Shown here: piece after piece, positions 2,171-61,179 of the stretch
Numbering within the stretch: the first letter of the stretch is position 1
Layout of the letters: every line of letters starts with the position of its first letter
NCBI GenBank assembly: GCA_038214535.1
Contig: JBBQRS010000009.1
Coordinates: forward strand, 4,176-68,175
Reading direction: 5' to 3'
DNA length: 64,000 bases
Origin: Anaerolineae bacterium
Lineage (GTDB): Bacteria > Chloroflexota > Anaerolineae > CG2-30-64-16
Made by a program: the position numbers and the translations under genes
Notes under the pieces: generated by a model
Told to the model about the DNA's origin: nothing
The model's database searches: none
What the model saw: the letters and a program-made list of their open reading frames with translations, nothing else

Positions 2171-4597
2171 ATGGCGAGACGACGGGCTAAACCCAAACCA
2201 AAAACCGGCCCTAACCTGGAGCAGTTGTTCCGTGGGGAGATCATCGGCGGCATCCTGGTGGTGCTGGCGATCCTCCTCATGCTGAGCCTGCTCTCGTCGA
2301 ACCGCGGGGAGTTTACGGGCGCGGTGGTTAACGGGCTGCGCGATCTGTTCGGCGTGGGCGTCTGGCTGGCGCCGCTGATCCTGGGGTTTGTCGGTGCATG
2401 GCTGGCGCTGCGCCACATCGCCGCCGACGATCCGATCTGGACGCGCCGGTTGATCGGCGTGTTCGCGCTTTTTCTCGTCGTCGAGAGCGTACTGCACATC
2501 CTGCTGCGCGACCGTTCGCTGCCCCCTGCCCCTTCCGGCGAGGCGGGCGGCGTGGTTGGTTCGCTGCTGGGGCAGGGCCTCGAAGACGCGCTGGGGCTGC
2601 CCGTGACCCTGACGCTGCTCTTCTTGCTGGCAGTTGGGATTTTAATCCTGATCGCCGGTTGGACCTCGGCCCAGATGGGGCAGACGCTGGCAGATAGCTG
2701 GGACGGCCTCAGGGGCGCGTTCAAAGGCCCCGACGGCAAGAACATCAATCCGCCGCTGCCGCTGGGTGAACCATCGCCGCTGAAAGAGTGGTGGCGGCAA
2801 TTGACGGCCGGCCGCGCCGCATCGTCCAAACCGTCGGAGGTCTTCCAACCATCTCCGCCGATTGCCATTAACCCGGCGCAATCTGCCAAAGCACAAACGC
2901 CGCCTTCGCCGCGCCCTTCGCTCTTTGCCCGCCCGACTACGCCTGCGACGGCTTCGCCGGCTGCGACCCGGACGCCGTCCGTAGAAACCCAGCCGCGCAT
3001 CGTGGGTGGGCGCGGGCAGACGTGGCGGCTGCCGGTGCTGGCGGAGATGCTCGAAGAAAGCTCGGAGGTGGATATCCAGAGCGATGACCTGCGGCGTCGG
3101 GCGCAGATCATCGAAACCACGCTGGAAGGCTTCGGCGTGCCGGTGCAGGTGGTCGAGGCGAACCAGGGGCCTGCCGTCACGCAGTTTGGGTTGCGCCCCG
3201 GCATCATCATACGCAAAGATCGCAAGGGCGAAGAAAAGCGCATCAAAGTCCGCGTCTCGCAGATTCAACAACTCTCCAACGATCTGTCGTTGGCGCTGGC
3301 GGCCTCACCGATCCGTATCGAGGCCCCCGTGCCCGGCCGCGACATTGTCGGGGTCGAGGTGCCCAACGTCCAGACGGCGCTCGTCGCCTTGCGCGGCGTG
3401 ATGGAGTCGGACGAATTTCGCGGGGCGCGTGGCCCGCTCACGATTGGGCTGGGGCGCGACGTTTCCGGCGCGCCCGCCGTCACCGATATGACCAAGATGC
3501 CGCACCTGCTCATTGCCGGGGCGACGGGATCGGGCAAGTCGGTGTGCGTCAACGCCATCATCACGGCGCTGTTGATGACGCATACGCCCGATACGTTGCG
3601 GTTCCTGATGATTGACCCGAAACGTGTGGAGTTGACCGTCTACAACGGCATCCCGCACCTGATTGCCCCTGTGGTGGTGGACGTGGAGCGCGCCGTGCCC
3701 GTGTTGCTGTGGGCGACGCGTGAGATGGAGCGTCGTTATAAGCTGTTTTCAAAGGCCGGGGCGCGCAACATCGAATCCTACAATGAAAAACTCGTGGCGA
3801 GCGGCGAACCGAGCCTGCCCTACATCGTCGTGATGATTGATGAGCTGGCCGACCTGATGCTCTCTGCGCCCGATGAGGTGGAGCGCCACGTTTGCCGGCT
3901 GGCGCAGATGGCGCGCGCCACGGGCATCCATCTGGTCATCGCCACGCAGCGCCCCAGCGTTGACGTGGTCACCGGTCTCATCAAGGCCAACTTCCCGGCG
4001 CGCATCGCCTTTGCCGTGACCTCGCAGATTGATAGCCGCGTGATCCTGGATACGCCCGGCGCGGAACAACTACTGGGCCGCGGTGACATGCTCTTCATGG
4101 CCCCGGACAGCAGCAAGCTCCATCGCCTGCAAGGCTGCTGGGTCTCGGATCGCGAGACGCAACACCTGGTGCGCTATTGGCGCGGCGCGCGGGCCTTTGT
4201 TGAGGACGGCGCGCCCGACGGGTTGCCGGTGGATGCGCTGGGCGCAACGCAGGCTGGGACGAGTGATGGGGCCGCGACCGGCGAGCTCGAGCCGCCGTGG
4301 TTGCCTGGGCAGGAAGCGCTGCAACAGCCGCTCTGGACCGATATGGCCGGGGTGGAAGCCAGCCTGTCGGGTAAGGATGACATGTATAACCAGGCGGTCG
4401 AAGAGGTGCGCAAAGCCGGGCGCGCCAGCGTGTCGCTGCTCCAGCGCCGACTGCGGATCGGTTATAGCCGGGCTTCGCGGCTGATCGAGGAGTTGGAGGC
4501 CGACGGCATCGTCGGGCCGGATCAGGGCGGCAGCCGCGGCCGCGAGGTGTTGCCGGATCAGGGCGAGGGTTCCGCGGCTGCGAGCTACGATGGGTGA
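2171..4597 (+). CDS. ftsK: DNA translocase FtsK: N-terminal TM domain, Pro/Ala-rich linker, RecA-like motor and a C-terminal gamma (winged-helix) domain.
   Basis: Walker A 'GATGSGKS' and Walker B 'VVMIDELADL' motifs. C-terminal 'SVSLLQRRLRIGYSRASRLIEELE' gamma domain. N-terminal hydrophobic helices. Confidence 0.95.
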   Translation: MARRRAKPKPKTGPNLEQLFRGEIIGGILVVLAILLMLSLLSSNRGEFTGAVVNGLRDLFGVGVWLAPLILGFVGAWLALRHIAADDPIWTRRLIGVFALFLVVESVLHILLRDRSLPPAPSGEAGGVVGSLLGQGLEDALGLPVTLTLLFLLAVGILILIAGWTSAQMGQTLADSWDGLRGAFKGPDGKNINPPLPLGEPSPLKEWWRQLTAGRAASSKPSEVFQPSPPIAINPAQSAKAQTPPSPRPSLFARPTTPATASPAATRTPSVETQPRIVGGRGQTWRLPVLAEMLEESSEVDIQSDDLRRRAQIIETTLEGFGVPVQVVEANQGPAVTQFGLRPGIIIRKDRKGEEKRIKVRVSQIQQLSNDLSLALAASPIRIEAPVPGRDIVGVEVPNVQTALVALRGVMESDEFRGARGPLTIGLGRDVSGAPAVTDMTKMPHLLIAGATGSGKSVCVNAIITALLMTHTPDTLRFLMIDPKRVELTVYNGIPHLIAPVVVDVERAVPVLLWATREMERRYKLFSKAGARNIESYNEKLVASGEPSLPYIVVMIDELADLMLSAPDEVERHVCRLAQMARATGIHLVIATQRPSVDVVTGLIKANFPARIAFAVTSQIDSRVILDTPGAEQLLGRGDMLFMAPDSSKLHRLQGCWVSDRETQHLVRYWRGARAFVEDGAPDGLPVDALGATQAGTSDGAATGELEPPWLPGQEALQQPLWTDMAGVEASLSGKDDMYNQAVEEVRKAGRASVSLLQRRLRIGYSRASRLIEELEADGIVGPDQGGSRGREVLPDQGEGSAAASYDG

Positions 4598-6098
4598 GGG
4601 TGTCGCGCTGAGGCGGGTCTTGCTGCTCGCCATTCTTGCCATCTATGTGTTGTTGGGAACGCTCTACGCCGTCAACACCCCCGACTGGCAGGCCCCCGAC
4701 GAACCGGCGCACTACAATTACATCCGCACCTTGGTCACAACAGGCCGCTTCCCCGTGCTCCAACCGGGCGACTATCCCGCCGACTATCTGGATGAGATCA
4801 AGCGCCTGGGGTTCCCGGCCGAGATGAGCATTGATCCGATTCGCTACGAGTTCCACCAACCGCCGCTATATTACATACTGGCAGCTCCATTTTATATCCT
4901 GGGCAACGGCGCGCTGTTGCCCATCCGCTTGTTTTCGGTGTTCCTGGGTGTGGGTATCGTGTGGGCCGCCTACGCGGTGGCGCGCCTGATTGTTCCACGT
5001 GAGCCTGCTATTGCGCTCGGTACGGCGGCGCTGATCGCGTTTTTGCCGCAACATCTCGCGACGGTCTCACAGGTGGGCAATGACGTGCTGGCGGAACTGC
5101 TGGTGGGGCTGGTGTTGCTGATATTGCTCATCTGGTTGCGCCCGCCGGTGGGGCAGATGCGCGCGTCGGGTGGGTGGCCGCTGTTCGGCCTGGGGCTGCT
5201 GCTGGGGCTGATCCTCATCACCAAGACGACGGCGTACATTGCCGTGCCTCTGGTATTCGGCGTGATGTTGTGGCGCTGGCTGGCCGAGCGGGCGTCGCTG
5301 CGCCGCGTCGCGTCCGACACGGTTGCCGTCTGGGTCCCGGCTATACTGATCGCGCTGCCGTGGTATGCCCGCAATCTCGCAATTTACGGCTGGCCGGACG
5401 CGCTGGGGTTGCTGCGGCATGATGCGGTGGTCGTGGGGCAACTGCGTACCGAGGAGTTCCTGGCCCAGAACGGTGCAGGTGTATACGTCGAGCGGTTGGG
5501 CGAGTTCACGTTCAAGAGCTTCTGGGGCGTCTTCGGCTGGCTGGGCATCTTCATGGATAGCCGCGTGTATTTTGTTTTGACGCTGCTCACGGTGTTGGCC
5601 GTGGCCGGGCTGTTCTTCCGGTGGCTGGTGTGGCCGCGCCGCCAACGTGCAGGAGCCGCGAAGCGCGCCGCCTATGCCCCGGTGCTGCGTGTGCCCTGGA
5701 AGGGCGCGCAGATCGTCGCCGCGCCGATGCTTTTCACCGTGATGGCGTATGGTTGGTATAACATCCAGTTCGTCCAGCACCAGGGGCGCTATCTGTTCAC
5801 GGCGCTCATCCCCATCGCCATCGGGTTCTGCCTGGGGTGGGATGAAGCCGTGACGCCGCGCAGCGCGCGCTTCCTCGCGGCGGGGCTGGTATTATTGGGC
5901 CTCGTCATGGCCGGGGCGACGCTGTGGCTGGGACAGGGGTTGCCCAAATGGCCGCTCGCGCTGACGGGGGCGGCCGCGGTTGCGTTGGCGCTGGCGTCCA
6001 TCCTGCCCGCGCGCTTCCGCTATCTGAGTTACGCGGCCCCCTTCTTGCTCTTGCCGATCATCGCAATTTACGCTGTCTGGGGGCCGATCACGCCCTGA
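4590..6098 (+). CDS. Glycosyltransferase family 39 / PMT_2-type (ArnT-like) membrane glycosyltransferase.
   Basis: Multi-TM protein with the 'DEPAHY' motif typical of PMT_2/GT39. ATGGGTGA start overlaps the ftsK stop. Confidence 0.7.
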   Translation: MGEGVALRRVLLLAILAIYVLLGTLYAVNTPDWQAPDEPAHYNYIRTLVTTGRFPVLQPGDYPADYLDEIKRLGFPAEMSIDPIRYEFHQPPLYYILAAPFYILGNGALLPIRLFSVFLGVGIVWAAYAVARLIVPREPAIALGTAALIAFLPQHLATVSQVGNDVLAELLVGLVLLILLIWLRPPVGQMRASGGWPLFGLGLLLGLILITKTTAYIAVPLVFGVMLWRWLAERASLRRVASDTVAVWVPAILIALPWYARNLAIYGWPDALGLLRHDAVVVGQLRTEEFLAQNGAGVYVERLGEFTFKSFWGVFGWLGIFMDSRVYFVLTLLTVLAVAGLFFRWLVWPRRQRAGAAKRAAYAPVLRVPWKGAQIVAAPMLFTVMAYGWYNIQFVQHQGRYLFTALIPIAIGFCLGWDEAVTPRSARFLAAGLVLLGLVMAGATLWLGQGLPKWPLALTGAAAVALALASILPARFRYLSYAAPFLLLPIIAIYAVWGPITP

Positions 6099-7054: not shown

Positions 7055-8428
7055 GTGGCTGCGATGGAACCGGGCGCGCCTCCGATTGACGGCCCGACCC
7101 GCGCGGCTGCGCCGCCGGGCGGAAGTTCCGACGGCAAGGCAGGCACGCCGCGCGGCAAGCGCTATATTGATGAGACCAAAGATACCCAGTTCACCAGCGC
7201 ATGGCTCGTCCTGGGGTTGATCCTGACGGTCGCCGGGTTCTTGCTGAACAGCCGCTTCTTGCTCGCCGTGGCGCTCAGCCTGTTCGTCATTAGCGTGGCC
7301 GCGTGGGCATGGAATTACTTTGCGCTCACCGGTGTGGAATATACGCGCAAGTTCGGTGAGACGCGCGCATTTCAGGGCGAGACGGTCGAGCTGATGCTGG
7401 AGGTGCGCAACCGTAAGCTGCTGCCCGTCAGTTGGGTGCAGGTCATTGACGTTTTCCCCGCCGCGCTGACGGTCAACGAGCGGCAGGTTGTCACGAACCA
7501 GTCTACCAATCAGGGCGAGTTCACCAGTTTCTGGAGCCTGGGCGCGTTCGGGCGCGTCACCCGGCGGTTCGAGGTCGCTTGCACCCGCCGCGGGTACCAC
7601 GCCTACGGCCCCGCATCCATCTCTACCGGCGACGCGTTCGGGATGTTCAGTTCCAGCGGCACGCTGACGGGCAGCCAGCGCCTGATCGTCTACCCGCGCA
7701 TCTATGCCGCCGCAGAACTGGGCTTACCGGCAAAGAACCCGTTTGGCGAGCGTCTCGCCGTCTCTCCGCTCATTGAAGACCCCCTGCGCACCGCGGGCAT
7801 CCGCGACTGGCAGCCCGGTGATGGGGTGCAGCGCGTGCATTGGAAGGCCACGGCGCGCCACCAGGCGTTGTTGAGCCGGCTTTATGAGGCCAGCCAGGAG
7901 TCGCAGGTGATGATCTTCCTGAACGTGGCGACCATGGAGCGGCACTGGCTGGGGCATTACCCCGAACTGATGGAGTTGGCGATCAGCGTGGCCGGCAGCC
8001 TGGCCGTGATGTCCGCCGAAATGCGCCTGCCGGTGGGGTTGATCGCGAACGGCTTCCTGCCCGGCAGCGACCAGCCGTTGCGTCTGTTGCCCGGCCGCAG
8101 CCCCGAGCAGATCGTACACATCATGGAACTGCTGGCGGCGGTCACGGCGTTTGCTACCGAGCCGATCGAAGGCCTGTTGCTGCGCGAGGCGCGGCGGCTG
8201 CCGTGGGGCGCGACGATCCTGGTGGTCACGGGGATTGCTCACGAGGGCCTGCTGGCGAGCCTGGCCGAACTGCTGCACGCGGGACGCAAGGTGGTGCTCT
8301 TCACGCTGGCCGAGAGTCCGCCGGAGGGACAGATCCCCGGTTTGGTGGTGTATCACATGCCGCAACTGTTGGATGATCTTGTGGCGCCCGATCTGGTGGC
8401 CGAAGGCGGGAATCATGCTGCTCGCTGA
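7055..8428 (+). CDS. DUF58 domain protein, the MoxR partner.
   Basis: 'GIRDWQPGDGVQRVHWKATARHQALLSRLYE' matches the DUF58 signature. N-terminal TM helices. Immediately downstream of moxR. Confidence 0.8.
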   Translation: MAAMEPGAPPIDGPTRAAAPPGGSSDGKAGTPRGKRYIDETKDTQFTSAWLVLGLILTVAGFLLNSRFLLAVALSLFVISVAAWAWNYFALTGVEYTRKFGETRAFQGETVELMLEVRNRKLLPVSWVQVIDVFPAALTVNERQVVTNQSTNQGEFTSFWSLGAFGRVTRRFEVACTRRGYHAYGPASISTGDAFGMFSSSGTLTGSQRLIVYPRIYAAAELGLPAKNPFGERLAVSPLIEDPLRTAGIRDWQPGDGVQRVHWKATARHQALLSRLYEASQESQVMIFLNVATMERHWLGHYPELMELAISVAGSLAVMSAEMRLPVGLIANGFLPGSDQPLRLLPGRSPEQIVHIMELLAAVTAFATEPIEGLLLREARRLPWGATILVVTGIAHEGLLASLAELLHAGRKVVLFTLAESPPEGQIPGLVVYHMPQLLDDLVAPDLVAEGGNHAAR

Positions 8429-13926: not shown

Positions 13927-14002
<76 letters not shown>

Positions 14003-15662: not shown

Positions 15663-15673
15663 GCTCCCAAGCC

Positions 15674-15735
15674 TTTGTAGTGACGGCTTTAGCCGTTGCG
15701 TGCGCCAAAACGGCTGAAGCCGTCACTACGAAGGC
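15674..15735. repeat. Nested palindromic intergenic repeat, copy 1 (REP-like), acting as a bidirectional terminator between convergent genes.
   Basis: TTTGTAGTGACGGCTTTAGCCGTT, 12-nt spacer, AACGGCTGAAGCCGTCACTAC. Each arm contains an ACGGCT/AGCCGT mini-hairpin. In minus orientation it is followed by TTTTGG. A near-identical copy lies at 29946-30010. Confidence 0.7.
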
Positions 15736-17114
15736 TGACCGGCCAGGGGTAGGGTAAGCGTGAAGGTTGCGCCGTGGCCCGGCGCGCTTTCTACGGTGAG
15801 ATTGCCGCCATGCGCCAGCGCCAACTGGCAGGCGATGGCCAGCCCCAGCCCTGCCCCGCCGCCGCGCCGGCTGCGGCTTTTGTCGGCGCGATAGAAGCGG
15901 TCGAAGACGTAGGGCAGGTCTTCCGGCGCGATGCCGCTGCCGGTATCCTCCACGATCAGCCGCGCCTCTCCCTCCGCCTGCTCGACCCGTATGGTGACGC
16001 TGCCTCCTGCGGGTGTGTGCCGCAACGCATTGCTCACCAGGTTTCGCACGATCTGCCCCAGCCGATCTCGGTCGCCGAGAACGATGGCTTCGCGCGCTGC
16101 CTGCTCTAATTTGAGTTGTATCCCGGCAGATTCGGCGGGCGGGCCGAAGTTCGCGGCCGCAACCTGCGCCACCTCTCGCACGTCCAAAGGCTGGGCGTCC
16201 ATCCGGAGTTGCCCCGCTTCGGCCAGCGCCAGATCGCGCAAATCGTCCACCAGGCGGGTGAGCAGGCGCGTCTCGTCGTATAGCCCGGCGATTTGCGCCT
16301 GATCCAGCGGGTAGATGCCGTCGAGCATGGCCTGCAAGTTGCCCTGGATCACGGTCAGCGGAGTGCGCAATTCGTGCGCGACGTCGGCCATTACATGCCG
16401 GCGCAGCGCCTCGGCGTCCTCCAGGTTGGCCGCCATACCGTTGAAGGTGCGTCCGAGTTCTGCGAGCTCGTCCTCGCCCACGGCTTCGACCCGCTGCGAG
16501 AGATCCCCGGTGGAAATCGCGCCCGCCGCGCCGGTCAATCGTCTCAGGGGTGAAGTCAGTCGCCGGCTCATCCAAAGCCCGACAAACAGGGCCAGCGCAA
16601 CCGCAGCGAGCGCGGCCAACAACAGCGCGCGTTGCACGGCAGCGAGAAACGCCTGGCCGGGGTCGTCGAGCACCAGATCGGCGGATGCCAGCGTGAGCAA
16701 CGTACCCACCTGTTGCCCCGAGGCGGTGGTGATCGGCAAACCGTGGGCAAGCAGCGCCGGTGAAAGCGTCTGCCCTGTCAACTCGCCGGTTGGGTCGGCG
16801 ACCACGCGGCCTGTGTCGTCCGCCAGCACCGCCCGGAATCCGCCGCGCCGACCACGGCCGCCCATCATCTGCCCCATGCCCTGACCGGGCGCGGTCTCTT
16901 CTAATAGAGGCTCCACGCCCTGCCATGTCCCGTATGTTGCGTAGTACGTGGCGAGGTTTTCGACCGCCTGGGGTGACAACATCATGTTACTGCGCACGAC
17001 ATACTGGCGGAACTCATCGCCGGTGGCGCGCAACACCACCGCCGCAACAACGGCCACGGCCAGCAACGCGACGGCGACAAAGGCCAGGGTCAGCTTGACC
17101 CAGAGGCGGTTCAC
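15726..17114 (-). CDS. Sensor histidine kinase (TM, HAMP, HisKA, HATPase_c).
   Basis: 'HELRTPLTVIQGN' H-box. 'DTGSGIAPEDLPYVFDRFYRAD' and 'GGAGLGLAI' G-boxes. N-terminal TM helix and HAMP region. Confidence 0.9.
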   Translation of the reverse strand: MNRLWVKLTLAFVAVALLAVAVVAAVVLRATGDEFRQYVVRSNMMLSPQAVENLATYYATYGTWQGVEPLLEETAPGQGMGQMMGGRGRRGGFRAVLADDTGRVVADPTGELTGQTLSPALLAHGLPITTASGQQVGTLLTLASADLVLDDPGQAFLAAVQRALLLAALAAVALALFVGLWMSRRLTSPLRRLTGAAGAISTGDLSQRVEAVGEDELAELGRTFNGMAANLEDAEALRRHVMADVAHELRTPLTVIQGNLQAMLDGIYPLDQAQIAGLYDETRLLTRLVDDLRDLALAEAGQLRMDAQPLDVREVAQVAAANFGPPAESAGIQLKLEQAAREAIVLGDRDRLGQIVRNLVSNALRHTPAGGSVTIRVEQAEGEARLIVEDTGSGIAPEDLPYVFDRFYRADKSRSRRGGGAGLGLAIACQLALAHGGNLTVESAPGHGATFTLTLPLAGQPS

Positions 17115-29945: not shown

Positions 29946-30010
29946 CTTTGTAGTGACGGCTTCAGCCGTTGTCGTGCCCCCCCAAAACGGCTGAAGCCGT
30001 CACTACAAAG
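29946..30010. repeat. Nested palindromic intergenic repeat, copy 2, with perfect 24-bp arms.
   Basis: CTTTGTAGTGACGGCTTCAGCCGT, 16-nt spacer, ACGGCTGAAGCCGTCACTACAAAG. Lies between the stop of the flippase-like gene and the start of the DUF11 gene. In minus orientation the inner hairpin is followed by TTTTGGGGGGG. Confidence 0.75.
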
Positions 30011-52923: not shown

Positions 52924-54759
52924 TCAAAGTCCCAATGCCGCCAACGTCTCGGACGAGGGCGCGCCGTCGGGGAGCCAGCCGCGCCCGGCGTAGTACTCCT
53001 CCAGGATCAGCGGCAGGTCGGGCAGGTTGCCTTCCGCGCCGCCGGAGGGTCGCGGTTGGGTGAGGATGCGCGGAGGCAGCGTGTCGTCTGCGCGCCGGAT
53101 GCCGTAACGGTTGTTGATCAGGCGCTTGAGGTTGAAGATGCGCGCGCCGGTGGTCAGCAACTCGTCGCCGGTGATGTTCCAGCCGGTCGCCACTCCGACG
53201 AAGCGGGCGACGTCATCCGGCGGGAGGCCCGTCTTGCCGATGAACTTGCATAGGCCCAGCGGGTTGTACGTCCCGAAGTAGTCTTGGAAGGCGATGGTCA
53301 CCGCGACCGCGCCGGGGCTGGCGAGCCGGTCGTGCGGGCCTTCTTGCCAGCCTGGGAATTCGATGCCGTAGCCGCGCCAGTAGGCGATAGACTCAAGGTG
53401 GCACGCGCCGCGCGCCGCGGTCGCATAGGTCGCGCCCATTGAGACGAAAGCTCGTGGATCATGATAGGGCAGCTCCATGCCCTTGACGTGGGCCGCGAAT
53501 TCGTCCGCGCCGCGGCCCAGATGCGCGGCCGCGGCGCGCGCCCCATCGGCCAGATACGCGCCCGCGCCTTCCCGTGCGGTGATGAGGTCGAGAAGCCGGA
53601 ACGCGCCGACAGGCTCACCCCATTCGAGCGCCACGCCGCCCGTATCCTCCGGGCCGATCAGCCCGCGCTCGAACGCCTCATAGGCGAACGCGATGACCGA
53701 CGAAGAGCTGATGGTGTCCAGCCCAGCGCGCGCACACAGATCGTTCAGCGCGGCGATGGAGGACAGATCGTCGTTCAGGAGTTGTGCGCCGAAACCGGCC
53801 AGCGTCTCATACTCCGGGCCTTCGCCGCGCACGCCCGCGTATGGCCCCTCGCGCACTTCGATCAGCTTGCCACACCCGATGGGGCACGCGTAACAGAAGG
53901 TGTGCTTGACCCACATCTGCTCGTGGATGGACGGGCCGGAGATTTTTTGCGCGCCCTCGGGCCATGAGCCGTCGCGCCAGTTGCGCAGCGGCAGGTCGCC
54001 CTTGCCCTCCGCGCCGACTACGCCGCCTGCTGTGCCAAAGTTGGACATCGGCATGGAATGCTCTTTGATGAAGGCATTATCCTCGCGCACGCGGTCGCGG
54101 AAGCCGGTGGGGTCGGCATAGACCGGTTTATCCCTCCCCCGGCAGACGATGCCCTTGACGTGTTTGCTGCCCAGCACCGCGCCCATGCCGCCGCGTCCCG
54201 CGGCGCGGCTGTGCTCACGCCCGCCCTGCATCACGTTGGCGAAGTGGACGAGGTTCTCGCCCGCGGGGCCGATGACCGCGGCGCGCGCCTTTGGGTCAGT
54301 TGCCGCCACCATCGCGTCGAACGCGTCGTAGGTGTCCATGCCCCATATCGCGGATGCGTCACGAATCTCGGCCATCTCGTCGTGGACGTAAAGATAGACC
54401 GGCTTCTCGGCGCACCCGATGATCACCAGCCCGTCCAGCCCGGCGAAGCGCAGTTCCGCGCCCCAGTGACCACCCATGTTCGACTCGTTCCAGATGCCCG
54501 TCAGCGGGCTACGACCACACCAGCTCGATCGACAGCCGGTAGGCGCAAATGTGCCGCTCATCAGGCCGTTGAAGATGTAGATGGGGCTGCGCGGGTCGAG
54601 CGGCGGCGAGTCGGGGTCCATCTCGCGGTGCATCAGCAGGGCCGCATATCCGCTACCCAGGTAGAAACGGCGGACGTCCTCGTCGGCGATGGTCTCGATG
54701 TGCTGCTCGCCGCTGGTCAGGTCAACCCGCAGATATTTCCCTGCATGAACATAGGTCAT
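52924..54759 (-). CDS. Tungsten-type aldehyde:ferredoxin oxidoreductase (AOR family), paralog 1.
   Basis: 'MTYVHAGKYLRVDLTSGEQ' AOR N-terminal domain. 611 aa. Cys-rich 4Fe-4S/pterin-binding region. Confidence 0.85.
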   Translation of the reverse strand: MTYVHAGKYLRVDLTSGEQHIETIADEDVRRFYLGSGYAALLMHREMDPDSPPLDPRSPIYIFNGLMSGTFAPTGCRSSWCGRSPLTGIWNESNMGGHWGAELRFAGLDGLVIIGCAEKPVYLYVHDEMAEIRDASAIWGMDTYDAFDAMVAATDPKARAAVIGPAGENLVHFANVMQGGREHSRAAGRGGMGAVLGSKHVKGIVCRGRDKPVYADPTGFRDRVREDNAFIKEHSMPMSNFGTAGGVVGAEGKGDLPLRNWRDGSWPEGAQKISGPSIHEQMWVKHTFCYACPIGCGKLIEVREGPYAGVRGEGPEYETLAGFGAQLLNDDLSSIAALNDLCARAGLDTISSSSVIAFAYEAFERGLIGPEDTGGVALEWGEPVGAFRLLDLITAREGAGAYLADGARAAAAHLGRGADEFAAHVKGMELPYHDPRAFVSMGATYATAARGACHLESIAYWRGYGIEFPGWQEGPHDRLASPGAVAVTIAFQDYFGTYNPLGLCKFIGKTGLPPDDVARFVGVATGWNITGDELLTTGARIFNLKRLINNRYGIRRADDTLPPRILTQPRPSGGAEGNLPDLPLILEEYYAGRGWLPDGAPSSETLAALGL

Positions 54760-54790
54760 CGAAAATCTCCAGATTTACCAAGAAGACACG

Positions 54791-54880
54791 AAGACACGAA
54801 GTTTTTTGCCACGAATTTCACGAATTGAGCGAATTTATGAAAGAATCTTTTTCAATTCGTATAATTCGTGAAATTCGTGG
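54791..54880. promoter_or_regulatory. AT-rich array of ACGAA(G) half-sites, including an 18-bp perfect inverted repeat, at the AOR1 promoter / AOR2 3' end.
   Basis: GACACGAA repeated twice in tandem. CCACGAATTTCACGAATT at 54809-54826 and AATTCGTGAAATTCGTGG at 54863-54880. ATTCGT repeated three times at 8-9 bp spacing. Confidence 0.5.
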
Positions 54881-54887
54881 CTCCTTT

Positions 54888-56780
54888 CTATGCCAGCCAG
54901 GCCAGGTCGAGTTCCCGTAGCTTGGCGGGGGTTGGGTTGCCGGTGGCGACGTCCCAGCCGCACAGCGCATAGTAGTCATCCAGCGCTGCAGCCAGTTCCT
55001 CGCGGGTCACGGCCACACCGTCTGACGCGCCGCCCACCAGCGGGTCATCGAAGATGCGCTTCGGTAATGTGTCCTGATCGCGGCCCGCGCCCTCGCGCGC
55101 GTTGAAGGCGCGCATCAAGTTCAAGCGGCGCTCGCCGACGCGCTGCATCTCCTCGATGGTGAAATCCCAGCCGGTGGCGGCCCGCATCAGCGCGACCATG
55201 TCATCCGGCCCGAAGAGTTGCCACGACGGCCCATAGACGAACTGGCACAGGTCAGCGGTATCCATGAACGAGTAGTTCCACTGGGTGCGCATGGCATATT
55301 CGACCTTCGCGTGGTTGAGCGTCTGATTAGGTTGCGGGTCGGTGAGACCGAGCTGCGCCAGCCGTGTCAGGCTCTCCGCCGCCGCGTCAGGCGTGTAGCC
55401 CGGATCGTGTTCGTGCGATTGGTGGTCGGCCCCGAACGGGTTGACCGCGTAGATCAACGCGAGGCTGCGCTTGACCTGTGGCATGTGCGCCGGAAGCTCG
55501 CCCGCCTTGACGGCGACCACGTAGTCCTCAGAGCCTTTGCCGATGGCCTGCGCGGCGAGCGCGGAGCCTTCGCCCAGTAGCCGGCCCAATCCTTCGCGGT
55601 GTGCGATCTGCTCGACCATTTTCAGCATCGCGTCGGCGTCGCCGAAACGTAGCTCGATGCCGCCGGTATCCTCAAGCGTCAGGATGCCCCGCTCGAAGCA
55701 TTCCATGGCCCAGGCGATGGTCGCGCCGCACGCGATGGTGTCCACGCCGTACTCGGCGCAGAGCTGGTTCGCCAGCGACACGGCGGCGAGGTCGCCCACC
55801 ATACAGTAGGAGCCGAAGGTCGCCAGCGACTCATACTCCGCGCCGCCGTACAACCCGATCACGTCGCGTCCCTGGTACTCCGTCTCGACCACGCGCTTGC
55901 AGCGGACGGAGCAGGCGTAGCAGGTGTCGTTTTCCACCAGGATGGTGTCGGCCATCGTTTCGCCGCAAATCTCGTCGGCCTGCGCGAAGGTTCCGCTCGT
56001 GTAATTGCGTGTGGGCAACCCGCCGCTGGTGTCCTGATACATCACGACGCCCCCGGTGCCGTACTTTTGGAGCGCTTCGACATCGAGGTATTCGGGGATG
56101 GACTTTGCGCCTCGGCGCGCCAGCTTCGCAACGGCGGTTTTGTCGGCCAGGTTGATCTTGCCGTGACCGCGCACCGCGATGGCCTTGAGGTTTTTGCTGC
56201 CCATCACCGCGCCCATGCCGGTGCGCCCGTGGGCGCGATTCGACATGTTCATGATGGCTGCATAACGCACACCGCGCTCACCGGCGATGCCGCATTGCGC
56301 GACCTCGATCTTGGAGTCGCCTAACTCTTCCTGGATCAGGCGTTGCGCATCGCCGGTGGTCTGGTCCCACAGGTGTGACGCGTCGCACAGTTCCGCTTCG
56401 CCGTCATGCACCCAAAGGTAGACGGGGGTCGCGCTCTTGCCGGTGACCACGATGCCGTCGAACCCGGCGAACTTGAGCTCGGCGGGCCAGAAGCCGCCGG
56501 CCTGGCTGTCGCCGATCAGCCCGGAGAGCGGGCTTTTGGCGGTCGCGGTGGCGCGGCTCTGCCCGCTGATGGGCGCGCCGGTTGTGGCCGAAAGCATCAG
56601 GCTCAGCGTGTTTTCCGGCCCCAACGGGTCGGCCCCGGCGGGAGTGTTTTTCAGCAGGTAGTAAACGCCCATAGCGCTGCCGCCCACGTAGGTGCGATAA
56701 AATGCCTCTTCGGGCTGCTCGACCTCAATCTGCCCCGTGCTCAAATCAACGTGTAAAATCCTGCCCGCATATCCGTACAT
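54888..56780 (-). CDS. Tungsten-type aldehyde:ferredoxin oxidoreductase (AOR family), paralog 2.
   Basis: 'MYGYAGRILHVDLSTGQ'. 630 aa. Collinear with paralog 1. Confidence 0.85.
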   Translation of the reverse strand: MYGYAGRILHVDLSTGQIEVEQPEEAFYRTYVGGSAMGVYYLLKNTPAGADPLGPENTLSLMLSATTGAPISGQSRATATAKSPLSGLIGDSQAGGFWPAELKFAGFDGIVVTGKSATPVYLWVHDGEAELCDASHLWDQTTGDAQRLIQEELGDSKIEVAQCGIAGERGVRYAAIMNMSNRAHGRTGMGAVMGSKNLKAIAVRGHGKINLADKTAVAKLARRGAKSIPEYLDVEALQKYGTGGVVMYQDTSGGLPTRNYTSGTFAQADEICGETMADTILVENDTCYACSVRCKRVVETEYQGRDVIGLYGGAEYESLATFGSYCMVGDLAAVSLANQLCAEYGVDTIACGATIAWAMECFERGILTLEDTGGIELRFGDADAMLKMVEQIAHREGLGRLLGEGSALAAQAIGKGSEDYVVAVKAGELPAHMPQVKRSLALIYAVNPFGADHQSHEHDPGYTPDAAAESLTRLAQLGLTDPQPNQTLNHAKVEYAMRTQWNYSFMDTADLCQFVYGPSWQLFGPDDMVALMRAATGWDFTIEEMQRVGERRLNLMRAFNAREGAGRDQDTLPKRIFDDPLVGGASDGVAVTREELAAALDDYYALCGWDVATGNPTPAKLRELDLAWLA

Positions 56781-56803
56781 TGGTAATTCTCCTCATATTT
56801 TTT

Positions 56804-56866
56804 ACCACGAAGGAACGAAGAAGTGAAGTCTTTAAAAAAATCTTCGTTACTTCGCTTCTTCGTGGT
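56804..56866. promoter_or_regulatory. AT-rich inverted array of three ACGAAG units per arm at the AOR2 promoter.
   Basis: ccACGAAGgaACGAAGaagTGAAG, then tctttaaaaaaat, then CTTCGTtaCTTCGCttCTTCGTgg. In gene orientation it is followed by TGGTAAAAAAT (extended -10-like) and GAGGAG (Shine-Dalgarno). Confidence 0.5.
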
Positions 56867-56950
56867 GAATCCCTTTGACATGCTCCAGATTATAGTCCGA
56901 AAGAGCCATCTGTTCCAACCAGGGCCGAACTACAGAGTTTCGGCGGTTGG

Positions 56951-58069
56951 TTATGGGGTGTTCACCGGCGCTTTCGTAGCTGCGGGCTGTTGCTGGGTGA
57001 TGCAGTGGATGTTCCCACCGCCCAGCAGAATCTCCCGCGCGGGTATGCCCACGATACGGCGTTCGGGCAACAGGCGCGCCAGCGTTTCCAGCGCCGCGGC
57101 GTCATAGGGGCTGTTGAAGGTGGGCACGATGACGCCGCCGTTGGCGATGTAGAAATTGATGTAGGAGGCGGCGAGCCGGTTGCCCGCGCGGCGCGGCAGT
57201 GTGCCCGGTGCGTGTTGCACGCTGGCGCTCTCCTCTGCGGTGACGGTCAGTGGGTCGGGCTGGTGCAGCTTGACCACCTCCAGCGTGCGGCCGCGCGCGT
57301 CCGACGCCCGGCTCAGGCGTGCGTAGGCGTCCTGCGAGATTGGGTATTGCGGGTCGGTCGTGTCGCCCGTCCAGGTGAGGGTCACAACGCCGGGTCGGAC
57401 GAAGCAGCACAGGTTGTCTACGTGACCGTCCGTCTCGTCGCCATAGACGCCCTGCCCCAGCCAGATGATCTTCTCGATGCCCAGGTAGGCGCACAGATAC
57501 GCCTCGATCTGGGCTTGCGACAACGCGGGGTTACGGTTGGAATTGAGCAGGCATTCCTCGGTGACCAGCAGCGTCCCTTGCCCGTCGGCGTGGATCGCGC
57601 CGCCCTCCAGTACCAGCGGCGCGGCGTAGCAATCCAGCCGCTCGATCTCCAGTATCTTGCGCGCAACCAGTGTATCCTGTTCCCAACTCGCGTAGATGCC
57701 ACCCAGCGCGCCGCCGTAGGCGTTGAATTCCCAATCCACGCCGCGCACTTCGCCCCGGTCGTCTACCACGAAAGTGGGGCCGGTATCGCGCGCCCAGGCG
57801 TCGTCGCCGGCGATTTCGACCACGCGCACTTCGGGGGGCAGCAGACGTCGTGCATTGGCCCATTGCATGGCCGACGCGCCCACGCTCACCAGCTCGAAGC
57901 GAGCGATGGCTGTGGCAACGGCCGCGAACGCACCCTGCGCCGGAACTGCTGACTCGCGCCAGTTGTCGGGCCGTTCCGGCCATAGCAGCCAGCAACCGGC
58001 GTGCGGCTCCCATTCGGCGGGCATATGGAACCCGTCGGCGCGGGGGGTGGTGGTCAGGGTGCGCATCAT
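56951..58069 (-). CDS. aguA: Agmatine deiminase (PAD_porph family).
   Basis: '[25 protein letters not shown]' is the canonical AguA N-terminus. Start at the MMRTLTT ATG, four nt after the upstream stop. Confidence 0.85.
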
Positions 58070-60955: not shown

Positions 60956-61072
60956 GACGGCATCCGTAGGAGTAACACTGTTTCGGAAGGAAATGCTACC
61001 TTGTGTTTCCGAAAACGTCAAAGAATGGGAAATATATGATGATAATGCCGTAATTAAAATCTGGAGTCCGCG

Positions 61073-61100
61073 TTGCTATGTTTGCAATTGGTGCTATAAT
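61073..61100 (+). promoter_or_regulatory. Promoter with extended -10: TTGCTA, 16-nt spacer, TGcTATAAT.
   Basis: TTGCTA at 61073-61078 and TATAAT at 61095-61100 in an AT-rich divergent region between lrp and the DUF1003 gene. Confidence 0.45.
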
Positions 61101-61179
61101 CGCATGGAAATCGCCCGTCATGCAGGGTCGGTTCCGGTGAAAGGCCGGATGGATCATCCTATATGTAGGAAGTTCAAAG

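Follow-up and report, generated by a model that had tools for sequence, protein, structure and literature searches.

A tandem-repeat hairpin with a possible post-transcriptional role upstream of an aldehyde:ferredoxin oxidoreductase gene in a Chloroflexota bacterium

Introduction

The short, tandemly repeated repetitive (STRR) elements of cyanobacteria are 7-bp tandem repeats able to form hairpins, for example between hupS and hupL, where a role in transcript stability or translational coupling has been proposed (PMC2670836). In Haemophilus influenzae, the heptamer (ATCTTTC)n in the 5'-untranslated region (UTR) of hmw1A is transcribed and makes up one arm of a hairpin that is cleaved by RNase III, and this sets expression (PMC12721329). 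In Beggiatoaceae, Cyanobacteria, and Bacteroidetes, intergenic arrays of the heptamer TAACTGA stand mostly a few nucleotides upstream of start codons, and translational regulation has been proposed for them (PMC4679880). Here, we analyze an inverted array of short ACGAAG-type repeats in a 64,000-nt stretch of DNA from an Anaerolineae bacterium (contig JBBQRS010000009.1; the whole stretch is called the window below). The array lies directly upstream of AOR2, one of two neighboring genes for enzymes of the aldehyde:ferredoxin oxidoreductase (AOR) family. In the reading that we favor, and that we regard as an even call, the array is an STRR-like tandem-repeat hairpin of 8-nt ACGAAGNN units that is transcribed and has a post-transcriptional role on AOR2.

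The element resembles the STRR sequences, including those upstream of hoxW, in its short units arranged head to tail, its intergenic or intercistronic position, its inverted arrays, and the filamentous hosts. STRR sequences come in several unit families per genome. It differs from them in its host phylum, the Chloroflexota, in a unit of 8-9 nt (7 nt in most other Chloroflexota examples), in the restriction of its copies to one operon, and in an oriented A-tract. Because the host belongs to the Chloroflexota and is not a heterocystous or filamentous cyanobacterium, the element is an analogue in another phylum and not a member of the cyanobacterial families. STRR-like tandem-repeat hairpins are known already, and it is their occurrence in the Chloroflexota, a new phylum, that we add; a limited literature search, which is no proof of novelty, returned no report of such elements in Chloroflexi. 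The function of STRR sequences has been open since 1990, and the same architecture, frequent and near start codons, in a second phylum of filamentous bacteria provides an independent comparative data set.

The likeness to hmw1A lies in a tandem short-unit repeat within a long 5'-UTR hairpin just before the gene, the number of repeats tuning hmw1A expression (PMC12721329). Among models for the working of such a structure, hmw1A has the best experimental proof. There, only the left arm is repetitive, the right arm is G-rich, and the locus is a contingency locus of a pathogen with at least 11 units; a role of RNase III at AOR2 would be an analogy. The Haemophilus mechanism supplies a directly testable hypothesis for repeats of this kind. 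The TAACTGA arrays share their placement with arrays in the Chloroflexota loci described below, and they too occur in filamentous bacteria. They differ in that one unit dominates and the arrays are nearly always direct, whereas the Chloroflexota use many units, and about one-third of their arrays are paired as hairpins. Repetitive extragenic palindromes (REPs) and the bacterial interspersed mosaic elements (BIMEs) that they form in enterobacteria are likewise intercistronic stem-loops in operons and are able to stabilize upstream mRNA segments. They are high-copy sequences with a GTAG/CGTC tag, are associated with REP-associated tyrosine transposases (RAYTs), and contain no tandem units, in contrast to the two copies in 64 kb of the family described here.

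Results

Architecture of the hairpin upstream of AOR2

The array occupies positions 56805-56865 and reads, on the plus strand, CCACGAAGGAACGAAGAAGTGAAG (56805-56828), TCTTTAAAAAAAT (56829-56841), and CTTCGTTACTTCGCTTCTTCGTGG (56842-56865). The original prediction, made from the letters alone, had proposed three 8-nt ACGAAG-type units per arm in inverted orientation in front of AOR2. Our analysis bears this out, with coordinates that agree to within 1 nt. AOR2 is encoded on the minus strand. In gene orientation, the 5' arm (56842-56865; RNA sense CCACGAAGAAGCGAAGUAACGAAG), which was found by folding, by inverted-repeat search, and by Tandem Repeats Finder (TRF), consists of three 8-nt units. 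It is followed by an A/U-rich loop of 13 nt (56829-56841) and by the 3' arm (56805-56828; CUUCACUUCUUCGUUCCUUCGUGG), again of three 8-nt units; loop and 3' arm were delimited from sequence and fold. An A-rich, predicted single-stranded tract, UAAAAAAUAU (56795-56804), leads from the hairpin to the Shine-Dalgarno sequence GAGGAG at 56794-56789 and the AOR2 ATG at 56780-56778 (together 56778-56794). The order is TAAAAAATAT, GAGGAG, 8 nt, and ATG; the original prediction had likewise read GAGGAG before the ATG. Only 10 nt separate the end of the array from the Shine-Dalgarno sequence, which is unpaired or weakly paired in the predicted folds.

The repeat is imperfect. The arms are only ~79% complementary (76% over 33 nt in the inverted-repeat search), and not all units are ACGAAG, one being GTGAAG and one GCGAAG. 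TRF reports a period of 8 with 2.8 copies at 56841-56862; units in the family to which this array belongs measure 8-9 nt, not 7.

Comparison with chance expectation shows the array to be nonrandom. Four ACGAAG hexamers fall within 63 nt, whereas no more than three did so in any of 300 dinucleotide-preserving shuffles of the window. In the 64-kb window as a whole, ACGAAG occurs 38 times versus 25.4 expected, and the inverted pair CACGAA-N20-50-TTCGTG occurs three times versus 0.12 expected, all three at the AOR upstream regions. The AOR2 hairpin folds into a long stem on either strand (-27.1 and -30.3 kcal/mol, with z scores of -5.1 and -6.6).

A structured RNA to be expected near AOR genes is the molybdenum/tungsten cofactor (Moco/Wco) riboswitch. 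At the Rfam gathering threshold, the only match in the window was a tRNA (13927-13999), with no riboswitch or other known RNA. At E ≤ 1, only eukaryotic microRNA-precursor models, far below threshold, matched the array, indicating a generic long hairpin. A terminator scan of 54600-57100 returned zero terminator-like sites; the stem is A/U-rich, and the next feature on the sense strand is A6, not a U-tract. The hairpin ends in CCAC/GTGG and carries neither a GTAG/CGTC REP tag nor an attC GTTRRRY core.

A sister region between AOR2 and AOR1

The original prediction also held that the 6-mer half-site of 54791-54880 recurs in front of AOR2. A related CACGAA-based array does precede both AOR genes, and the pair is nonrandom; the region at 54791-54880, however, resolves into two different elements. 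The first is a hairpin on the minus strand (54808-54881) with arms of three 9-nt CACGAAUUN units, 28 nt long and 89% complementary, and an 18-nt loop. Its unit is CACGAATTN, its z scores are -8.7 and -9.6, and TRF reports a period of 9 with 2.9 copies at 54854-54879. The second, also on the minus strand, is a one-sided 8-nt direct repeat at 54782-54801 (sense CUUCGUGUCUUCGUGUCUUC; TRF period 8, 2.5 copies), and it is this repeat that contains ACGAAG hexamers. By alignment with the closest relative described below (locus L001), it is the relic 3' arm of the G-type (8-nt ACGAAG) hairpin that precedes AOR1 there. In effect, the half-hairpin is a natural one-armed mutant: relative to L001 5996-7318, the window is without a γ-aminobutyrate (GABA)-aminotransferase-like gene, the 5' arm, and the loop. 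Two gaps, 56781-56950 and 54760-54887, contain the elements, and the genes on either side are co-oriented. The 64-kb window holds two hairpins and one relic of the family, all in one cluster.

Four related hairpins in the closest relative

We compared the window with 160 Chloroflexota AOR loci (1.28 Mb including the window) using our own scripts. Gene orientation was assigned with a codon-position model trained for each locus on its AOR gene, which reproduced the Pfam-supported strands in the window. The closest genomic relative, L001, is a metagenome-assembled genome (MAG) labeled 'Chloroflexia' whose AOR2 is 93% identical; Thermoflexales and Anaerolineae MAGs follow at 70-73%. Compared with the window, the reading frame of the L001 AOR2 orthologue (4001-5895) is broken by two insertions of one base each (alignment columns 51 and 243), which are either MAG assembly errors or the mark of a pseudogene.

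L001 carries four CACGAA hairpins, one in each intergenic gap of the cluster. Two have 9-nt units: 2598-2682, before a saccharopine-dehydrogenase-like gene, and 5903-5980 (hairpin C), after AOR2 and before the GABA-aminotransferase-like gene, whose 31 of 31 pairs are perfect. The other two have 8-nt ACGAAG units and lie before AOR2 (3917-3986) and before AOR1 (7257-7318, hairpin D). All start 7-32 nt past a stop codon and stop 15-30 nt short of the next start. A gap is therefore little more than hairpin, A-tract, and Shine-Dalgarno sequence, leaving no space for a separate promoter. As two of the four precede genes other than AORs, the motif is not specific to AOR genes.

Between the window and L001, 7 of 104 arm positions differ (6.7%; hand count from the sequences), as against 81 of 324 fourfold-degenerate sites of AOR2 (25%). 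The loops change in both sequence and length: that of the AOR2 hairpin differs from its 14-nt orthologue in L001 and from the 12-nt loop of hairpin D. The arms are thus about four times more conserved than fourfold sites, and the element is probably not pure junk.

Within L001, the hairpins before AOR1 and AOR2 are nearly identical. The two AOR proteins share only 34% identity, so these hairpins are not remnants of an old gene duplication, and a tandem duplication that carried the hairpin along with the AOR gene is ruled out on the same ground. The similarity instead points to recent spread or active maintenance.

Window and L001 also differ in gene content, by deletions of whole genes between hairpins. 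The deletion end points, which show short microhomologies, are located within a coding region and within the loop of a hairpin. Being off the hairpin boundaries, they argue against cassette-type recombination at the hairpins.

The CACGAA family

Seven CACGAA hairpins are found across the window, L001, and one further locus, L063. All have invariant CACGAA...TTCGTGG ends, and every unit contains the core ACGAA[G/T]. An A-tract follows six of the seven, a property of this family that is not seen across the wider class described below. Copies with the G-type core have a period of 8 nt and spacers of 12, 13, or 14 nt; those with the T-type core have a period of 9 nt and spacers of 16-18 nt or more. 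Such a drifting period and spacer fit a stem-loop and would be awkward for a cooperative DNA-binding array. Between the two types, 4 of 16 predicted pairs are altered on both sides with pairing retained. The L063 copy, a CACGAATTT hairpin, lies upstream of ftsK and after an aldehyde dehydrogenase gene. Elsewhere in the survey, CGAA-type arrays of at least three units are rare (L011/L092, L039, L084, L109, and L127); the L109 array sits in a related, more divergent CGAATTA hairpin.

By its own terms, the original prediction would be refuted if the sites were not conserved in orthologous promoters, and they are not. None of the AOR2 orthologues in L081 (86% identity), L082 (75%), or L002-L009 and L083-L090 (70-73%) is preceded by the array. 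L082 keeps a single CCACGACAAGAAC at the corresponding position, with no array, and its AOR2-AOR1 spacer holds a G+C-rich stem that is not significant (z = -1.2). In most of the relatives at 70-73%, the stop codon of a dehydrogenase gene abuts the AOR start, leaving a gap of ~1-80 nt. The absence of the array from orthologues indicates that the hairpin is an insertion or expansion specific to the lineage of the window and L001.

Taken on the sequence comparisons, the element appears to belong to a small local CACGAA family that spread recently, in this lineage, into the gaps of a cluster of agmatine/putrescine and AOR genes. It does not appear to be a conserved operator of a metal- or aldehyde-sensing regulator.

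A wider class of periodic hairpins in Chloroflexota

The survey further revealed 44 unique hairpins with periodic arms (6-9 nt) in the 160 loci and the window, built of dozens of unrelated units, among them AAGGAAAC, GGACGAT, GGTATCN, TGCGTGT, AAGGATG, GACCGNN, GCAGGGGA, AGTAAGG, GGTGAGTTN, CCAGTNA, and CGTATTG. Of the unique 6-10-nt arrays reported by TRF, 149 fall in noncoding DNA (282 kb) and 77 in coding DNA (994 kb). For about 52 arrays, or about one-third, a partner array in inverted orientation lies no more than 90 nt away. Units upstream of an AOR homologue differ between genomes, and both hairpins and direct arrays occur there, long direct arrays being, for example, (ACGCAAC)x10 in L027 and (CGTGAAA)x5 in L099. 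The AOR2 array also seems to be one of a much larger set of 6-10-nt arrays and hairpins, common, fast-changing, and varied in sequence, in the noncoding DNA of Chloroflexota.

Eighteen periodic hairpins lie in co-directional gaps, 2 in divergent gaps, and none in convergent gaps, which hold 15 nonperiodic hairpins. In 17 of 18 cases, 3-64 nt (median ~24 nt) separate the hairpin from the downstream start codon; the remaining hairpin lies at 205 nt.

Two near-identical strains offer a view of how such repeats change. A single 7-nt unit, ACCAGTT, in one of the two arms separates the CCAGTNA hairpin just downstream of AOR in L139 (5895-5964) from its counterpart in L143 (2492-2547). The difference has the form of a copy-number polymorphism of the slippage type. 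A coordinated change of unit number in both arms was considered and is ruled out, since the indel affects one arm only. In the GACCGNN hairpins of L038, L044, and L042, 3 of 26 pairs are altered on both sides and several pairs are broken, a weak signal of compensation. The arms are more complementary in register (0.88) than when slipped by one unit (0.78), a difference that we discount because the hairpins were ascertained in register 0.

Several other regularities were noted in the survey. Long direct heptamer arrays, such as (ACGCAAC)x10, (CGTGAAA)x5.6, (TCAGTGG)x11.6, and (GAATGGA)x5, stand directly before Shine-Dalgarno sequences or after stop codons (for example, L027 1473-1544, L099 29-171, L011 5892-5972, and L063 7463-7499), and many of their units share an ACG..A. 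pattern. Among intergenic hairpins, purine-rich 5' arms outnumber pyrimidine-rich ones by 27:7 in the periodic set and 66:32 in the nonperiodic set; for a palindrome, this is the same on both strands.

Discussion

A post-transcriptional role for the hairpin

In the reading that we favor, the hairpin would be transcribed with the AOR2 leader or within a polycistronic mRNA and would fold into a stem of ~24 bp. Transcription might come from the upstream genes or from a promoter-like TTGGAA-N18-TATAAT at 56918-56889. The stem could serve as a processing site for a double-strand-specific RNase of the RNase III type, as a barrier to exonucleases, or as both, and would in this way set how stable the AOR2 segment is and how it is translated. 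The A-rich tract next to the stem may act as a single-stranded landing site for the ribosome, and the repeat units would make stem length evolvable through slippage.

Some of our observations weigh against this reading. In both window hairpins, the antisense strand gives the slightly stronger fold. Between the orthologous hairpins of the window and L001, there are no compensatory substitutions, the window copies being simply more degenerate. Among 33 oriented class members, G-U and A-C mismatches on the sense strand are balanced at 30:30, which gives no strand-specific RNA signature; we score this test neither way. Of the 28 intergenic gaps of at least 40 nt in the window, the family occupies only 2, which adjoin each other, a distribution that would fit a cluster-specific binding factor as well. 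Finally, all surveyed loci are centered on AOR genes, and the class statistics are not genome-wide frequencies.

A broader proposal is that stem-loops with tandem-repeat arms, located some tens of nucleotides ahead of start codons in leaders and between cistrons, form an as yet undescribed, phylum-wide class of evolvable post-transcriptional rheostats in the Chloroflexota, within which the CACGAA set co-tunes the genes leading from agmatine and putrescine to the AORs. Stem length would be set by slippage of units and read out by a double-strand-specific RNase or by the ribosome. We put this forward as a tentative idea that is rather unlikely. In a bolder variant, a cluster-specific protein that binds RNA or DNA would recognize the conserved ACGAA core.

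Natural experiments for these ideas are at hand in the presence or absence of the hairpin among relatives at 75-93% identity, in the one-armed relic, and in the single-unit indels. For annotation, our results suggest that short motifs repeated before Chloroflexota paralogues should not be taken for shared operators, as they are usually lineage-specific repeat hairpins.

Alternative explanations

Unlikely, though to be taken seriously, is a neutral or selfish repeat: a by-product of slippage or palindrome expansion, or a small nonautonomous mobile repeat, tolerated between genes when so oriented as not to terminate transcription and without a regulatory role for AOR2. Its absence from orthologues at 75-86% identity, its recent spread into several neighboring gaps, and the unit indel in near-identical strains are all consistent with this, as are the one-armed relic at 54782-54801 left by deletion, the decay of the window copies relative to the perfect L001 palindromes, and the even G-U/A-C ratio. 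The function of cyanobacterial STRR sequences has itself been unsettled for decades. A purely neutral repeat sits less easily with arms that are some four times more conserved than fourfold sites and with loops that vary freely. An oriented module is also suggested by six of seven family members, in which an oriented A-tract follows and the hairpin sits close ahead of a Shine-Dalgarno sequence.

The original prediction had favored a dedicated regulator of both AOR genes, perhaps responding to tungsten or aldehyde. In this explanation, ACGAAG half-sites would be bound cooperatively by such a regulator, of the Lrp/AsnC or ribbon-helix-helix (RHH) type, that co-controls the AORs. RHH operators offer a precedent: the metboxes that MetJ recognizes are 8 bp long and stand in tandem, and omega recognizes 7-bp heptads set in direct or inverted order, so that the period of 7-8 bp and the mixture of direct and inverted units are shared with the array studied here. 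The ACGAA[G/T] core is present in all units of the seven family copies, the family is confined to one cluster within 64 kb, an Lrp/AsnC gene heads that cluster, and arm sequence is conserved relative to L001 beyond what pairing demands. RHH operators, however, form uninterrupted arrays of constant period that are conserved along with their regulator, whereas the units studied here recur every 8 or 9 nt, the spacer ranges from 12 to 16-18 nt or more, and no RHH gene accompanies the arrays. The arrays are not conserved in orthologous promoters, and in L001 the same arrays precede non-AOR genes; the proposed regulator is therefore not supported.

Further observations point in the same direction. 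The L001 gaps have no room for a promoter, and TGGTAAAAA, which resembles an extended -10 element, would start transcription on or after the Shine-Dalgarno sequence in L001. The promoter region of the cluster and of the Lrp/AsnC gene itself (61022-61179) contains no ACGAA array, and in the window nothing ties Lrp/AsnC to the motif, the L001 locus being cut before that region. Variants of the unit are mirrored between the arms, non-core positions included (31 of 31 in L001 hairpin C), a mirroring that independent half-sites do not need. Finally, analogous hairpins elsewhere are built of dozens of unrelated units. We consider an operator array quite improbable.

It is more doubtful still that the hairpin is a terminator or attenuator. 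Polymerase coming out of the agmatine deiminase gene would then stop or pause at it, and AOR2 would need read-through. A strong stem-loop in a co-directional gap is in keeping with such a function, and strongly structured RNA occurs in 26% of co-directional and 53% of convergent spacers. U-tracts are generally rare in these genomes, and for this reason the missing U-tract is not decisive. The terminator scan found no site, however, and the A/U-rich stem leads into an A-tract, where an intrinsic terminator would have a G+C-rich stem and a U-tract. Convergent gaps contain none of the periodic hairpins, as against 15 nonperiodic ones, and four terminators in one 5-kb cluster of L001 would fragment a co-oriented, tightly packed operon. 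As a separate observation, U-tracts follow 4 of 70 stable nonperiodic hairpins and 1 of 33 periodic ones, and terminators in these Chloroflexota loci may mostly be without U-tails.

It is barely credible that the hairpins are attC-like or REP/RAYT-like sites of recombination, or boundaries of cassettes, that delimit the units in which the cluster gains and loses genes: gene content does differ between the window and L001 by whole genes between hairpins, but cassette, attC, and REP readings are ruled out by deletion end points that lie in a coding region and a hairpin loop instead of at hairpin ends, and by CCAC...GTGG ends that lack the REP GTAG/CGTC tag and the attC GTTRRRY core, genuine GTAG-tagged REP doublets being present elsewhere in the window and unrelated.

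These REP-like inverted doublets (TTGTAGTGACGGCTTNAGCCGT; four copies versus 0 expected) lie in intergenic DNA at 15670-15736 and 29946-30010. They are internally palindromic and resemble REP doublets forming hairpins (REPINs). They have no relation to the CACGAA hairpins, and none of the 160 loci contains them.

The gene cluster

The hairpins lie in a minus-strand cluster headed by the Lrp/AsnC regulator gene (61021-60479). Genes for a putrescine-aminotransferase-like protein (60451-59093), a putrescine carbamoyltransferase (59084-58074), and an agmatine deiminase (58117-56951) follow. AOR2 (54888-56780) encodes a 630-residue member of the aldehyde:ferredoxin oxidoreductase family (Pfam AFOR_N, 3.9e-70; AFOR_C, 2.2e-117), and AOR1 (52924-54759) a protein of 611 residues; a gene for a multihaem cytochrome (52745-51420) comes after AOR1.

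Between the agmatine deiminase gene and the AOR2 hairpin, on the minus strand, lies a 55-nt coding remnant (56873-56927) from the N terminus of a saccharopine-dehydrogenase-like gene. It is 89% identical to the saccharopine-dehydrogenase/carboxynorspermidine-synthase-like gene that is intact in L001 (2705-3910). The TTGGAA-N18-TATAAT sequence lies inside this remnant, and L082 has the same stretch ahead of its AOR2. An exapted promoter or an internal one may be present here. As TATAAT (56889-56894) is sited in a remnant of coding sequence, its assignment as a promoter is uncertain, although L082 keeps TATAAT.

From gene order, we infer that the cluster serves agmatine/putrescine catabolism, with the AORs oxidizing aminoaldehyde intermediates. 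The arrangement suggests that, in the anaerobic catabolism of polyamines (agmatine/putrescine), tungsten-type AORs take the place of aldehyde dehydrogenases.

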